This document shows, piece after piece, positions 3,664 to 38,002 of a stretch of 64,000 nt of DNA (its first letter is position 1; each line of letters starts with the position of its first letter). Source of the stretch: Escherichia phage MIZ4. Both the position numbers and the translations under genes were made by a program. Location: sequence record OR167180; one strand, written 5' to 3'. The notes under the pieces were generated by a model. That model was not told where the DNA came from. It did not search any database and saw only the letters and a list, made by a program, of their open reading frames with translations.

Positions 3664-4218
3664 CTAAAAATTTTTAACACCATATTCACCAAAATAAAGA
3701 TCAACCGCTTTGTCATAAGCTCTGGCCGCATCTTCTTCGTTGACATAATACCCAAGAGATATTAGTTTATCATTATTTCGTATTCTTGCAACCCATTTCT
3801 TCGTATGTTTATGCCAGCTAACCCCTTTATACTTGCTTGCTTTATTCTTGTACTTTCCAACGTTACAAGCATTTTTCTTTGCGTCGGACTCTCTAAGATT
3901 GCGTGGTGCGTTGTTTAAAGGATTTCGGTCTATATGATCTATAATTTCTGGTTGTGTTCCATGCTCAAGAAACCATACAATACGATGTACATATGGCTTT
4001 AAAACCCTCCCATTATCCATAACAATTGCAATTTGGAGATGATCCTGACTTTTAAAAGTTTTTACTTTATCTCCTGCCTTATAAAACTTTCCTTCGTAAT
4101 TCTTTCCTCCGGCTCGGCTATTCTTTAAATGATAAAGAATACCATCGTCGTCATGTCTATATCTTTCTCGTATAATTCGTTGCGTTTCTTCATCCCACAA
4201 TTTGGAACGTCTACTCAT
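3664..4218 (-). CDS. HNH homing endonuclease with C-terminal AP2-type DNA-binding domain
   Basis: HNH motif IDHIDRNPLNN followed by AP2-like YKGVSWHKHTKKWVARIRNNDKLISLGYYVNEEDAARAYD; SD GAGGAAG upstream; sits where T4 carries alpha-gt. Confidence 0.75.
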   Translation of the reverse strand: MSRRSKLWDEETQRIIRERYRHDDDGILYHLKNSRAGGKNYEGKFYKAGDKVKTFKSQDHLQIAIVMDNGRVLKPYVHRIVWFLEHGTQPEIIDHIDRNPLNNAPRNLRESDAKKNACNVGKYKNKASKYKGVSWHKHTKKWVARIRNNDKLISLGYYVNEEDAARAYDKAVDLYFGEYGVKNF

Positions 4219-4308
4219 AGTCTCTTCCTCTCTTCGTTTTCGATGCTCTCACTATATCACAGAAAAATAAAAAGGGAAACCCCTTTCAGAGTCTCCCTTA
4301 TAAAGCCA

Positions 4309-4596
4309 TTACAGCATACTTAATACCGTTTGCCGTGTACTAATCCACATAGCAGAAAGCAGTTCTGGTGTGTGTGGCTGTTTGTAGATATCACGTAATT
4401 TTCCGATAGCGTAGATATACGCATCACGATTATCATCGATGATAGCTTGCTCAGCCCACCGCTTAAGTCGTGCAATCTCTCGCGAGTTCTTACGCAAGAT
4501 CTTTTCCGCTTTCTTAGCGGCTTTAGCCTCTAGTTCTGCTTGTACTTTGTCTACTTCATTCACTGCAATCTTGTCATGCTGTTCATTGCAAGTCAT
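4309..4596 (-). CDS. Hypothetical protein (95 aa), charged/coiled-coil
   Basis: ORF track; minus-strand array; no motif. Confidence 0.5.
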   Translation of the reverse strand: MTCNEQHDKIAVNEVDKVQAELEAKAAKKAEKILRKNSREIARLKRWAEQAIIDDNRDAYIYAIGKLRDIYKQPHTPELLSAMWISTRQTVLSML

Positions 4597-4597
4597 A

Positions 4598-4831
4598 TTA
4601 TTTTACCTCTGGGATATAATCAATTATTAAAGAAAATTCATCTTCTGATACATTATAGCTATGTGAGATTGTACCCGTCAAGACCTCAAGATCCGGTGAT
4701 TTGATATTGCACGGATCGATAATCACCGGAACGCCGCAATCTCTCAAAAATAATTTGGCGAAATACGGCACAAGGTCAGTTTCAAACTCTGCTTCTTCCA
4801 GCAAACGGGAAATGTTAATTTTCAATCTCAT
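4598..4831 (-). CDS. Hypothetical protein (77 aa)
   Basis: ORF track; abuts neighbours on same strand. Confidence 0.45.
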
Positions 4832-5348
4832 AAAATTGGTCCAGGCTAGGCAATTCCTCGGTCAATACATCTTCAACCTTTGGCGCTTTCGGTTTATTGA
4901 CCGATTCCTCGTAGTTGTTGATTTTATCGTAAATGTCCTGTATGAATGCCTCATCAGCAATCTGGCACATATCAGCGTCGCGTTCGTCATATACATGATG
5001 CACAAAATATTTGTATTTTGCGGCTGTCGCTGTTCTTTCTTTTTTAATGCGCTGCACAAAAGCATTAAAGCACGCTTGCGTGATGTAAGCATGAGGATTT
5101 TTATACTTTGTCTCGTCAAAATTAATCAAACCCTTGACCGCCGCTTCGATTCCATCGTCGATCATTTCTTCGCGCCATGTTTGACTATAGCCAGAAAAGT
5201 TAAAACGCCGTGATAGATTTTTAGAGATTTGCATAATTGCCAGGCCGATTTGGTCACTCATTGGCACTTGCCGACCTTCTGCTGCAATTCGTTGTTTCCA
5301 ACGGCAAATTTCTTCGTAAAGCTCTTTATTGTTTACATAATCAGACAC
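4815..5348 (-). CDS. 55: Late-transcription sigma factor gp55
   Basis: Central region [57 protein letters not shown] is nearly identical to recalled T4 gp55. Confidence 0.93.
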
Positions 5349-28415: not shown

Positions 28416-28751
28416 TTATCCTTTCTTAAACAAATTGCGAAGCCAGTATACAAACGGGATTTCTTTAAACTTGAATTTCTCAATAGTTAATTCTTTAGTA
28501 GCAAGATGAATACCATAAGCATCATGTGTAACTATATGCCATTTTCTATAGTCCAAATGTGAACAACCGTCTGGATCTAGGTTAATAAGAGTTTCTCGCT
28601 CACTAGGATTATTTTTCCACAATTTTGTAATAGGATCGCACATAATTCGACCTAGCGTACCATGAATAATCTCACAACGGTAAAGTTTTCCAGCAGTGAG
28701 ATAGGCGCACCCGTCATAGTCGGTATAAACAAACACTTCTTTAACACTCAT
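28416..28751 (-). CDS. Hypothetical protein (~111 aa), family D paralog
   Basis: Trimmed to MSVKEVFVYTDYDGCAYL; shares CSHLDYRKWHIV-type C-terminal block with the next two ORFs. Confidence 0.5.
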   Translation of the reverse strand: MSVKEVFVYTDYDGCAYLTAGKLYRCEIIHGTLGRIMCDPITKLWKNNPSERETLINLDPDGCSHLDYRKWHIVTHDAYGIHLATKELTIEKFKFKEIPFVYWLRNLFKKG

Positions 28752-28782
28752 TTTAATACTCCTTTGTTGTTTCGATGGGGGT

Positions 28783-28811
28783 ATATTACTACCCCCGATC
28801 ATGTGTGTCAA
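28783..28811 (-). promoter_or_regulatory. Sigma70-type early promoter cassette
   Basis: Minus-strand TTGACA (28806-28811), 17-nt spacer, TAATAT (28783-28788) within palindrome GGGGGTA..TACCCCC. Confidence 0.45.
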
Positions 28812-29072
28812 CTACTTTTTCAAGATTTTTTTAATTGCATTCCAAAGACCTTTATTCCCAGGTTGTTTTGGTTCTTCGATCAGTGTCCATGTTCGACCGT
28901 CTAAGTGTGCACAATTTTTAAGACAAATAAAAATCTGGTGTCCTTTATCATCACGGATATAACCACTATTCGCAAATCTTTCATGTGGTGTATATTCATA
29001 CAGTGTATTTGGTGTAATATACTTGCGGTTACTATAAGGTGTCATCACATACATCATGGTACTAACTCCCAT
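28812..29072 (-). CDS. Hypothetical protein (86 aa), family D paralog
   Basis: YEYTPHERFANSGYIRDDKGHQIFICLKNCAHLDGRTWTLI. Confidence 0.5.
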   Translation of the reverse strand: MGVSTMMYVMTPYSNRKYITPNTLYEYTPHERFANSGYIRDDKGHQIFICLKNCAHLDGRTWTLIEEPKQPGNKGLWNAIKKILKK

Positions 29073-29248
29073 TTATCACCGCGAAGATGAGAACATACAC
29101 CATCAAGAAGGATCGTAATACGATAACCTATATCATCTTTGATGTAACCGATTGTCGGTGGATGTTCGTCGTCTCGTGCCGGGGTAAAATCATACATCTT
29201 TCCAGGCGTAATATCTTGTCCTTTATTGCTATTGGTATAAACTTGCAT
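29054..29248 (-). CDS. Hypothetical protein (64 aa), family D paralog
   Basis: YDFTPARDDEHPPTIGYIKDDIGYRITILLDGVCSHLRGDKWELV. Confidence 0.5.
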   Translation of the reverse strand: MQVYTNSNKGQDITPGKMYDFTPARDDEHPPTIGYIKDDIGYRITILLDGVCSHLRGDKWELVP

Positions 29249-29269
29249 TTTCTTAATCTCCTATATTAA

Positions 29270-29968
29270 CTAACCACGGGTATAGTGTTCCAGAACAACT
29301 GTCAGATGAATATATTCTAATAGATCTTTCCAAAAGTCAACATCTGGTTCTTCCGGCATACCGTTTTTCTTTGCCTCTTCACGCGCGAGTTTAACACGCT
29401 CGTAGAGATCTTTCAATTCTTCCCGCACATTATCAAAGGTTCTTTCTCCTAACTTACACGCTAAAATAGAAGAACGTCGCGCGAGCGGGAATTGTAGATC
29501 ACCAGTTTGATAGATTTCAAGTAGCTGATAACCAACACGCAGAGCATGAGAAAGATCTTTCCAGTTACTGAAATACTTTTCAGATTTTGCTACCTGTTTC
29601 TTGAGATAACCAGACAAACCCCACATCCCAACATGATAGAATTTATCGCGATGTGTTCGGATGTATTCCCATTCTCTGGAGGATTCAACCAACATGTTAC
29701 TAGGCGCGTGCACCATATCAATAGCGCCGATATCACCTTTACATGCCAGATTGATAAACCGTTTTAGACTGAACATATTAACGTCAATATCGTCTTTGGT
29801 GTTCTTGATACCTTGACCGCTAGTGCTTTGGTCATAGTGTTCTTTCATAGATCCTAAGATAATTTCTTTCGCAGTCGGAACAAAGATACCACGATAATCT
29901 TTATCTGAATTTTCAGTATCAAGGCCGTACAAGTGAGATCCGAAGACCATTTTAACCATTGTATGCAT
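29270..29968 (-). CDS. Predicted pol-beta-superfamily nucleotidyltransferase
   Basis: N-terminal FGSHLYGLDTENSDKDYRGIF fits the GS-x(9-13)-DxD minimal nucleotidyltransferase signature. Confidence 0.55.
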   Translation of the reverse strand: MHTMVKMVFGSHLYGLDTENSDKDYRGIFVPTAKEIILGSMKEHYDQSTSGQGIKNTKDDIDVNMFSLKRFINLACKGDIGAIDMVHAPSNMLVESSREWEYIRTHRDKFYHVGMWGLSGYLKKQVAKSEKYFSNWKDLSHALRVGYQLLEIYQTGDLQFPLARRSSILACKLGERTFDNVREELKDLYERVKLAREEAKKNGMPEEPDVDFWKDLLEYIHLTVVLEHYTRG

Positions 29969-29986
29969 AATTAAACCCTCAGTTGA

Positions 29987-30580
29987 TTAAACGTATTCAG
30001 CAACAACATTATGTTTAAAATTACCGCTCCTTTTTGGATTTGGATTTTTCAATCGACTATGTATTAAATTTTTGTTGTATCCGGTTGCTTTAGACGCTTC
30101 GCCAATACTTTGATAAACAACACCATTAACACGAATCGGACGAGACTTATTAAACAGTTTATTCAATCCGGCATCATATGCATGGTTTTGGTTTTCTTGC
30201 CTCGTTGCGATCTCAAGATTCCAAACACAATTACAAGATTTTACCCCACTTTTATGATTAATTTCAAGACCTTCACAATCACCTATAAAGTGTTCAGCAA
30301 CTAGTCTATGAATATAGCGATATTTCTTACTTTCCCCATCATGCAAGCATACATTATAATAACCATCACCAGCGCGTTTAGGTCGGAGTAGTTTACCTTT
30401 AACACGTTTTATAGTAGGGAACTCACCAAATTGATTTCTCTGGATAAACGGAATCTCGCGGTCTAATGAACGGATTCGACCATAGTTAGACACTTGATAA
30501 AAACTTTCATATCCTTTAATTGGCTTCCATATCTCAGGGATTTCTACACCATCAATAACAACAAGTTTAAATTCTTCCAT
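29987..30580 (-). CDS. HNH homing endonuclease (NUMOD4-HNH-NUMOD1-like architecture)
   Basis: YQVSNYGRIRS (NUMOD4-like), HNH region CLHDGESKKYRYIHRLVAEHF...INHKSG...NLEIATRQEN, C-terminal VNGVVYQSIGEASKATG helix-turn-helix-like. Confidence 0.8.
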   Translation of the reverse strand: MEEFKLVVIDGVEIPEIWKPIKGYESFYQVSNYGRIRSLDREIPFIQRNQFGEFPTIKRVKGKLLRPKRAGDGYYNVCLHDGESKKYRYIHRLVAEHFIGDCEGLEINHKSGVKSCNCVWNLEIATRQENQNHAYDAGLNKLFNKSRPIRVNGVVYQSIGEASKATGYNKNLIHSRLKNPNPKRSGNFKHNVVAEYV

Positions 30581-30587
30581 ACTTCAC

Positions 30588-30622
30588 CTCATAAAAATAA
30601 AGCCAACCCTTTCGGATTGGCT
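30588..30622 (-). terminator. Intrinsic terminator downstream of GrcA-like gene
   Basis: AGCCAACCC-TTTCGG-ATTGGCT hairpin at 30601-30622 followed on the minus strand by TTATTTTTAT. Confidence 0.55.
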
Positions 30623-30628
30623 TGTTGA

Positions 30629-31042
30629 TTACATAGATTCCGTAAAGGTACGGGTGATAATATCAAGTTGTTGTTCGCGTGTCAAGGCGTTGAAGCGGGT
30701 AGCATAACCACTGATTCGAATTGTAAGCTGCGGGTACTTCTCAGGATGTTCAACCGCATCAAGAAGAGTCTCCCGACGCAGTACATTCGCGTTGAGATGA
30801 TGACCCGCGTTACTATTTACCCCGTTATCAATTGCTAAAGGACGGAAGCTAGTTGTGTGCAGTTCCAGCGAATCGACGTCTTCTGCGGTGATCACATGAT
30901 CTTCTGCGAAAGTTTTACTAACAATTACTTTAGCGCCGATCAGTGCTTTCGGTTCGGATACCAGAATCATAGGCGCGAAATGTCCACCGATAATAGTACC
31001 TTTATGCTCACCTTTCATGATTTGAATTGCTTTAAATTCCAT
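30629..31042 (-). CDS. Autonomous glycyl radical cofactor (GrcA/YfiD-like, PFL C-terminal domain homolog)
   Basis: C-terminal [29 protein letters not shown] matches the PFL/GrcA glycyl-radical signature; a T4 YfiD homolog is known. Confidence 0.85.
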
Positions 31043-37531: not shown

Positions 37532-38002
37532 TTACAGTTTGGTCGTCCACTCCAGGTCTAGATCTTCGACATACTCATGAGATCGGACAATCTCTAAATC
37601 GAACTCTAGGTCAGTGCCAAATTTACGCGCACCAACATCATAAGAAAGCGTGATATGCGGTACATATTCAGGATAATCCCACGTCGCACCTAAAGCAGTG
37701 CCGATATCGTGTCTGAATTGCATGTAGTCGCTTTCAAATGCCAGCACAAGCGCATTAGTACTGGATTGAGTTTCAAACACTTTCAGATGGCATAGAGAGC
37801 CTAAGAACTTCTCCCCTTCTTCTGGGATAAACGGAACATAGACACGAGAATATAAGATAGTGCTATGCAGTTTATCACGAGGAACGGCATTAGGCAGATC
37901 GTAGAACTCCTGCAATTTTTCAATGCGGTCTAGTGTATCCTCAGTGAATTTAACCGCAGCATATGTACCTTTAACGGATTCTCGAAACGGGGTCATAATC
38001 AA
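37532..38002 (-). CDS. 57B: 2H-phosphoesterase family protein, gp57B-like (candidate Acb1-type cyclic-oligonucleotide phosphodiesterase)
   Basis: Two H-x-T/S-x motifs (HSTILYS and HITLSY) spaced as in 2H phosphoesterases; position immediately before 57A and gene 1 matches T4 57B. Confidence 0.55.
   Translation of the reverse strand: MIMTPFRESVKGTYAAVKFTEDTLDRIEKLQEFYDLPNAVPRDKLHSTILYSRVYVPFIPEEGEKFLGSLCHLKVFETQSSTNALVLAFESDYMQFRHDIGTALGATWDYPEYVPHITLSYDVGARKFGTDLEFDLEIVRSHEYVEDLDLEWTTKL

Follow-up and report, generated by a model that had tools for sequence, protein, structure and literature searches.

A compact Krischvirus orthologue of T4 NrdC.11, assigned to the RlaP family of nucleotidyltransferases, and its possible part in phage tRNA repair

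We analysed a stretch of 64,000 nucleotides from Escherichia phage MIZ4 (sequence record OR167180), the whole of which is called the window here, and concentrated on one gene, nrdC.11, on its minus strand at positions 29270 to 29968. On sequence grounds the 232-amino-acid product is almost certainly a member of the RlaP family (PF10127) of nucleotidyltransferases (NTases), being the Krischvirus orthologue of T4 NrdC.11. The gene is already known, as a recorded orthologue in a named and recently characterised family; an earlier note on this DNA, made from the sequence alone, had presented it as uncharacterised, and in this respect the note has to be corrected. By comparison with its characterised relatives, the protein probably transfers nucleoside monophosphates (NMPs) to the 3' ends of RNA.

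The nrdC.11 gene and its family

The nrdC.11 coding sequence is an ATG-to-stop open reading frame (ORF) whose translation begins with MHTMVKMVFGSHLYGLDTENSDKDYRGIF. A Shine-Dalgarno sequence, GAGGG, can be read off the sequence at 29976 to 29980 on the same strand, 8 nt 5' of the start codon. The ORF is real and its N-terminus had been quoted correctly in the earlier note, which left the strand unstated. A 4.2-kb stretch around the gene has 100% identity with Escherichia phage MIZ5 and 90-99% identity with 57 other RB49-like phages (genus Krischvirus, Straboviridae). The gene is annotated as a nucleotidyltransferase in MIZ5, and in RB49 it is RB49p098, gene nrdC.11, product nucleotidyltransferase. 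Codon differences from the RB49 copy are synonymous in nine cases and non-synonymous in none, and nrdC.11 is therefore under purifying selection. Relatives were found by tblastn in 1620 phage records, and by an exhaustive HMMER search in 3559 representative clusters at E<=1e-3, 187 of them at E<=1e-30. Because of these homologues, and because only synonymous change separates the gene from that of RB49, the ORF is far beyond chance expectation.

PF10127, with the full name 'RNA repair pathway DNA polymerase beta family', matches the protein at 54.1 bits against a gathering cut-off of 23 (E 2.3e-14), residues 7-191 being colinear with positions 24-198 of the 249 in the profile. PHROG 388, 'nucleotidyltransferase', matches at 2e-79. 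Furthermore, PF10127 was present in all 120 homologues among the matches listed from a search of 5.8 billion proteins. The tblastn relatives belong to T4-like phages of enterobacteria, Aeromonas and Acinetobacter, and also to Mycobacterium, Gordonia and Bacillus phages, and the matches fall on nrdC.11 of RB32 and other Tequatrovirus phages. The link to bacterial members was made with hhalign, in which a profile of 51 phage sequences aligned with the canonical 255-aa RlaP of Bacillus tequilensis over 232 columns covering both domains (probability 99.6%, E 1.4e-24). The motifs GSHxYG, SDxD[YF]KGI and KNTKDD[IV]D are common to the phage profile and the Bacillus protein, which itself matches the full Pfam RlaP model at 74.6 bits. 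A search of NCBIfam with the protein gave no match, and PADLOC gave only a non-significant match (E 0.031) to an unrelated model. In many GenBank and UniRef records, NrdC.11 orthologues are named 'thioredoxin', 'glutaredoxin' or 'HNH homing endonuclease'. These names are annotation errors, and the first two probably derive from the gene name nrdC.11.

Residue conservation was read from alignments of 13 and 51 homologues. G10-S11 of the hG[GS] motif (29936 to 29941, minus strand, as are the other positions given for this protein) is invariant in the 51 homologues, and so are D22 and D24 of D22-K-D24 (29897 to 29905), the first two predicted metal-binding carboxylates, which align with SDRDFKGI of the Bacillus RlaP. 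D60-I-D62 (29783 to 29791) lies in the KNTKDDIDV motif, which is common to the Bacillus RlaP; both aspartates are invariant, and one of the two is predicted to be the third catalytic carboxylate. D84 is likewise invariant in the 51 homologues, and other invariant residues are W100, Y111, G120, Y121, W136, K137, H141, R144, K172, G174 and W213. The signature of Pol-beta NTases, hG[GS]-x(9-13)-DxD together with a further conserved carboxylate, is present in the larger alignment. For the RlaP family 'three strictly conserved aspartic acids' have been described (PMC12776372). The earlier note had placed the protein in the Pol-beta superfamily from a signature given as GS-x11-DxD, and had raised the possibility that the second catalytic acid might be missing. 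The superfamily and the signature stand, with D60, D62 and D84 as extra invariant carboxylates, and the second acid is not lost; only the spacer was wrong, with 10 residues between G10-S11 and D22-x-D24 instead of 11.

In the AlphaFold2 (AF2) model (pLDDT 92.4, pTM 0.88) an NTase core is followed by a helical domain. The predicted N-terminal NTase domain covers residues ~1-96 (29681 to 29968) and has a beta/alpha core, with strands at residues 2-9, 23-30, 44-48, 61-67 and 93-95 and helices at 11-14, 33-38, 68-76 and 80-86. D22 and D24 are modelled at the start of strand 23-30, and D60 and D62 at the start of strand 61-67. The predicted C-terminal domain (residues 97-232, 29273 to 29680) is helical and HEPN-like, including a terminal helix at 210-230. 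The order of these modelled parts agrees with the three published for PfRlaP, one of two characterised Pseudomonas enzymes: NTase domain, helical domain, terminal helix (PMC12776372). In RlaP that last helix is described as folding back against the NTase domain. The likeness to PfRlaP is drawn from the published description, the sequence comparison having been made with the Bacillus member (~25% identity). The part beyond the N-terminus had been called helical and acidic: in the model the C-terminal part is indeed helical, but residues 97-232 have an isoelectric point (pI) of 7.8, against 6.5 for the whole protein, and only the last 28 residues are acidic (pI 4.4).

Searches of PDB chains by sequence, whether the query was the protein alone or a profile of 13 sequences, gave chance-level matches only (haemoglobin, N-glycosylases). 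When Foldseek was used against the PDB, the top matches were ANT(4') kanamycin nucleotidyltransferase (KNTase), LinB and AAD(9), with E 1e-5 to 1e-3, TM-scores of only 0.26-0.42 and 10-14% identity; the PDB set used held no RlaP structure, and the nearest solved folds in it are other two-domain NTases. In a viral structure library the same protein had already been modelled (TM 0.98), and the full-length fold recurs there at TM 0.7-0.84 in many phage 'nucleotidyltransferases', in giant viruses and in baculovirus HE65.

T4 NrdC.11, itself in PHROG 388, is orthologous to the window protein and falls in the same Pfam family, the parts common to T4-type NrdC.11 and the window protein being 42-48% identical. 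Residues G10, S11, D22, D24, D60, D62, D84, W136, K137, H141 and R144 are invariant in both. By its own account, the earlier note's reading would fail if the protein proved clearly identical to an RNA repair/ligase accessory protein already known from T4-like phages, and such an identity is what we find, since the gene is the T4 nrdC.11 orthologue, which has been placed in RlaP (PMC12776372). The two forms differ in size. T4-type NrdC.11 has ~336 aa (range 300-350) compared with 232 aa here, and carries between the NTase and helical domains an insert of ~100 aa (residues ~131-240) that the window protein lacks. Also absent from the window protein is a KYGxKGSR motif, which is nearly invariant in T4-type NrdC.11 and lies ahead of the insert. 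In a T4-type model (pLDDT 86.8) the inserted residues form two helices and five strands, arranged as an alpha/beta module. Insert-bearing examples of the T4 type are nrdC.11 of RB32 (3998-5011 of locus L003), the protein P0017 and other proteins. Both the insert and the KYGxKGSR motif are likewise missing from P0002, a 234-aa relative that is 57% identical to the window protein. Coverage by the Pfam RlaP model is colinear in the short forms (P0002 positions 23-229), whereas in the T4-type proteins it extends only up to ~143.

A neighbour-joining (NJ) tree was rooted on one Bacillus sequence as the sole outgroup and carries no bootstrap values. In this tree both the Krischvirus protein and P0002 branch from within the long-form clade, and other short forms are found at at least two further positions. 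Because the short forms nest in this way, the tree suggests, tentatively, that the insert was lost secondarily and repeatedly. The gene neighbours differ as well, being vs.6 and small ORFs in this phage and mobD.1 and nrdC.10 in T4-type phages.

The bacterial RlaPs of Pseudomonas (PfRlaP and PaRlaP) have in common with the window protein the Pfam family, the layout of an NTase domain with a C-terminal helical domain, and the conserved aspartates. A spot check of bacterial gene neighbourhoods covered two loci, in Bacillus tequilensis and Flagellimonas marina, with 76 further loci outside it. Both are prophage-like or mobile, one with an SNF2 helicase and an IstB-like ATPase, the other with a NUDIX-NMNAT protein, a C5 methylase and an HNH gene. 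The latter context, on the Flagellimonas marina contig (locus L008), has the appearance of a prophage, or of phage DNA that was co-assembled, and not of a cellular operon for RNA repair. Long-form (~310-333 aa) NrdC.11-like genes were observed in bacterial assemblies, on this contig and at the loci L019-L057 from Sulfurovum/Campylobacteraceae metagenome-assembled genomes.

Predicted activity, role and alternatives

Matches of nrdC.11 orthologues to COG3541 nucleotidyltransferases were recorded in 2006, in comparisons of RB49 and T4 (PMC1524935). The name RlaP was coined by Burroughs and Aravind (2016), who, as cited in PMC7824862 and PMC12776372, found some members in operons with RNA ligases and predicted that RlaP puts back nucleotides lost from damaged RNA before ligation. 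In jumbo phages the distribution of RlaP mirrors that of RNA ligases (PMC7824862). PfRlaP and PaRlaP, whose genes are located between rtcB and rtcA, were characterised biochemically and structurally in a preprint of December 2025 (PMC12776372). According to this study, the two enzymes label only RNA among E. coli macromolecules and are inactive on DNA. They add 1-2 NMPs onto an RNA 3'-OH, 3'-phosphate ends not being substrates, use all four nucleoside triphosphates (NTPs) as well as dATP, and prefer Mn2+ or Co2+. In a mimic of cleaved tRNA they favour the 3' end of the 5' half, and they partly restore aminoacylation of a tRNA without one anticodon-loop nucleotide (PMC12776372).

By analogy with the Pseudomonas enzymes, NrdC.11 would, in the presence of Mn2+, extend the 3'-OH end of RNA by one or two NMPs without a template. 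RloC-type 'smart' anticodon nucleases were thought to defeat tRNA repair of the T4 type. During infection, such nucleases of the host would cut tRNA and then trim nucleotides from it. In a further and less certain step of the proposal, NrdC.11 may restore the trimmed nucleotides on the cleaved tRNA, after which Pnkp and Rnl1 of the phage, acting in trans, would reseal a functional rather than a shortened tRNA. That NrdC.11 works in tRNA repair together with Pnkp and Rnl1 we regard as the likeliest role among those considered, though with a probability a little short of even, and that it is the answer of the phage to 'smart' anticodon nucleases such as RloC as a somewhat more tentative proposal still. 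RB49 carries rnlA for RNA ligase 1 (Rnl1), pseT for polynucleotide kinase/phosphatase (Pnkp) and, in addition, a second small gene that is kinase-like. The ends that Rnl1 joins are a 3'-OH and a 5'-phosphate, and its step is compatible with RlaP because it needs a 3'-OH, which is the end that RlaP leaves. In this the phage ligase, being a 5'-phosphate ligase, is unlike RtcB, encoded next to RlaP in Pseudomonas. A 3'-OH end left by RlaP suits 5'-phosphate ligases generally (PMC12776372).

Several points weigh against this role, or against carrying the activity over to the phage protein. In RB49, pseT and rnlA are situated ~75 kb from nrdC.11. No RNA ligase was found within +/-6 kb of nrdC.11 in the MIZ5 and RB49 neighbourhoods, in contrast to the Pseudomonas genes with their flanking rtcB and rtcA, and an adjacent RNA ligase was also absent at the two spot-checked bacterial loci. 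The window protein has only 25-29% identity with bacterial RlaP members. In the sequence-similarity network of the family the phage clade is in another cluster (5) than the assayed enzymes (1a), and T4 NrdC.11, in cluster 5, is called an RlaP 'of unknown function' (PMC12776372). The enzyme activity ascribed to phage RlaPs would be that of the Pseudomonas enzymes, and substrate handling may differ because the Krischvirus form is without the KYGxKGSR motif and the ~100-aa insert. Additionally, the authors of the preprint call the in vivo repair scenario a proposal (PMC12776372). Viable T4 with a reduced genome has lost, among other fragments, nrdC.11-mobD.3 (PMC9825161); the loss is in keeping with an accessory function that depends on the host and is silent on which role that is.

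At ~37532-38002 of the window, ~8 kb away from nrdC.11 and beside the gene for the tail-fibre chaperone 57A, lies 57B, which MIZ5 and RB49 annotate as 'RNA ligase' and whose product has ~155 aa. Near this position the coordinates of the window and of MIZ5 are offset by one base. As a ligase near nrdC.11 this gene was discounted, since its T4 counterpart is no ligase but Acb1, a 2H phosphoesterase with an anti-CBASS role.

The protein could also be an RNA 3'-end nucleotidyltransferase with another job, either in repair or alteration of the 3' CCA of tRNA or in tailing host or phage RNAs, with effects on stability or translation, during early host shut-off. Such tRNA or RNA tailing was among the roles offered in the earlier note, and the RlaP family bears it out as an option. 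The gene stands among early RNA and translation genes, namely those for the regB endoribonuclease, vs (valyl-tRNA synthetase modifier) and the tk.4 macro-domain protein, and the lack of an adjoining RNA ligase, counted above against repair of the anticodon loop, here counts in favour. On the other hand, neither free single strands nor the acceptor end suit the characterised RlaPs as well as the 3' end of the 5' half in a mimic of cleaved tRNA, and RlaP co-occurs with RNA ligases across phages (PMC7824862). For tailing in particular, a T4 tailing phenotype is not known. We consider a job of this kind unlikely, though it deserves to be kept in mind.

Far less probable is a maker of nucleotide or oligonucleotide signals, that is, a second-messenger synthase like the CD-NTases, or an enzyme like HalB whose oligodeoxyadenylate would act as a decoy and keep a Hailong-type channel closed. 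HalB (PDB 9dbh/9dbj) is a tetramer making protein-primed poly-dA in a bacterial defence system (PMC13434031), and nothing points to such synthesis by the window protein. Its identity to the window protein is 12-16%, with no sequence relationship detectable by HMMER even when the profile was used at E<=10. The protein had no significant PADLOC match and no SMODS/CD-NTase match in Pfam. All two-domain NTases (KNTase, LinB, AAD(9)) score alike, and the likeness to HalB is at fold level only. Moreover, the characterised RlaPs stop after 1-2 additions and require an RNA primer. A part in anti-defence instead of repair, in which NrdC.11, in the manner of HalB as its nearest structural neighbour among solved proteins, would make short oligo(deoxy)nucleotides that switch off an oligonucleotide-gated effector of the host, for example a Hailong-type channel, has an equally slight probability.

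The layout of its domains and its place in RlaP already contradict the reading of the protein as an MNT-type minimal nucleotidyltransferase that serves in a toxin-antitoxin system by AMPylating a HEPN partner; the probability of this reading is very small indeed. Both the word 'minimal' and the toxin-antitoxin role had been put forward in the earlier note and are withdrawn here. The protein has 232 aa with the helical domain fused to the NTase domain, Pfam NTP_transf_2 has no match to it at E<=1, and the best MNT structure, 7ae9_G, reached only E 0.14 over 120 columns. Judged by Pfam, no HEPN or toxin gene is adjacent, the neighbours being an HNH endonuclease gene and genes for small proteins of PHROG 6261/15978; PADLOC, too, is without a significant match. 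ANT(4') KNTase and the MNT-HEPN systems likewise combine an NTase domain with a helical domain of HEPN-like type behind it; in KNTase the two are fused, and the MNT-HEPN pairs have them as two proteins. Their resemblance to the window protein amounts to TM 0.37-0.40 and 10-11% identity, and their acceptors are aminoglycosides or the HEPN toxin, not RNA.

Finally, nucleotidylation of a small molecule, as by the aminoglycoside and lincosamide nucleotidyltransferases that head the Foldseek ranking, has hardly any probability at all: those matches are low in TM-score and identity and are merely the solved two-domain NTases in a library without an RlaP structure, RNA was the sole substrate when RlaPs were tried on RNA, DNA and protein, and antibiotic modification is of no evident use to a lytic phage.

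The adjoining HNH cassette and the vs.6 tract

The gene lies in a variable early region, and beside it, as the earlier note had it, is an HNH homing-endonuclease gene. This free-standing gene (29987 to 30580, minus strand) has NUMOD4, HNH_3 and NUMOD1-like modules in Pfam, with 67 bits for NUMOD4, 40 bits for HNH_3 and weak NUMOD1/I-TevI DNA-binding matches. It is separated from nrdC.11 by 18 nt. The note's wording that the HNH gene follows nrdC.11 holds in plus-strand coordinates only, as in the direction of transcription it is upstream. The cassette, ~29991-30588, occurs in 8 of the 58 Krischvirus records. It takes the place of 17 nt in the intergenic region of RB49, with the vs.6 terminator hairpin on one side and the nrdC.11 ribosome-binding site on the other. 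The terminator-like hairpin (30600 to 30623, minus strand), a 10-bp stem and then a T run, comes after vs.6 and upstream of the HNH gene and nrdC.11, and is also present in RB49.

Identities flanking the junction were taken from BLAST high-scoring segment pairs. On the nrdC.11 side identity to RB49 is 97-100% right up to the junction. On the other side lies vs.6, whose product is a GrcA-like glycyl-radical protein (58.7 bits to Pfam Gly_radical). Over the final ~290 nt of this gene (30589 to 30875, minus strand) identity falls to 55-85% before it returns to 97-100%. The eight phages with the HNH gene, and no others, have this variant tract at 93% identity or more (8/8), compared with 70-74% in the rest of the 58; in two of the eight it is only 211 nt long. 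Since the HNH gene and the divergent tract are inherited together, vs.6 is predicted to be the homing target, and the tract suggests a co-converted, presumably cleavage-resistant donor allele. In its sequence the neighbour gene fits a free-standing homing endonuclease in the HNH and NUMOD modules, the presence/absence polymorphism and the flanking co-conversion tract. The locus had been described as prone to recombination; this applies to the HNH cassette but not to nrdC.11, as the mosaic tract runs into vs.6 instead. nrdC.11 adjoins the mobile cassette and is not part of it.

A homing-endonuclease gene is found directly upstream of nrdC.11 both in T4, where it is mobD (PMC2988022), and in this phage. 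We rejected the HNH gene as a relative of MobD that targets nrdC.11. It is not a MobD homologue, because its next relatives outside Krischvirus are less than 45% identical and come from Gram-positive phages, and the divergence lies in vs.6 and not in nrdC.11. T4 mobD appears to be an independent insertion.

A strong sigma-70-like promoter match (11/12, with an extended -10 TG) was observed at 30657-30685 on the minus strand, inside the variant vs.6 tract and just upstream of the hairpin and the HNH gene. Expression of the latter may be driven or regulated from this site, unless the match is due to chance. With 14 sites where 9.4 +/- 3.1 were expected, the promoter scan is not informative. Directly downstream of nrdC.11, at 28416-29248, there are three tandem small ORFs of 64, 86 and 131 aa which are mutual paralogues (PHROG 6261/15978). 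These lengths are those of mechanical ORF calls, and MIZ5 annotates the last two as shorter coding sequences. The region ~29080-29260 is somewhat more divergent from RB49, with 88-90% identity.

Implications

The finding itself is of little weight, as the gene was flagged in 2006 and the family was named in 2016 and characterised in 2025. Its remaining value concerns the in vivo role of phage RlaPs, the compact form without the insert, and the joint inheritance of the HNH gene with the vs.6 tract. With its 232 aa, the Krischvirus form would be a convenient minimal enzyme for testing the repair role. If NrdC.11 restores the nucleotides removed by RloC-type nucleases, it would be a third enzyme in the classic T4 Pnkp/Rnl1 tRNA-repair pathway.

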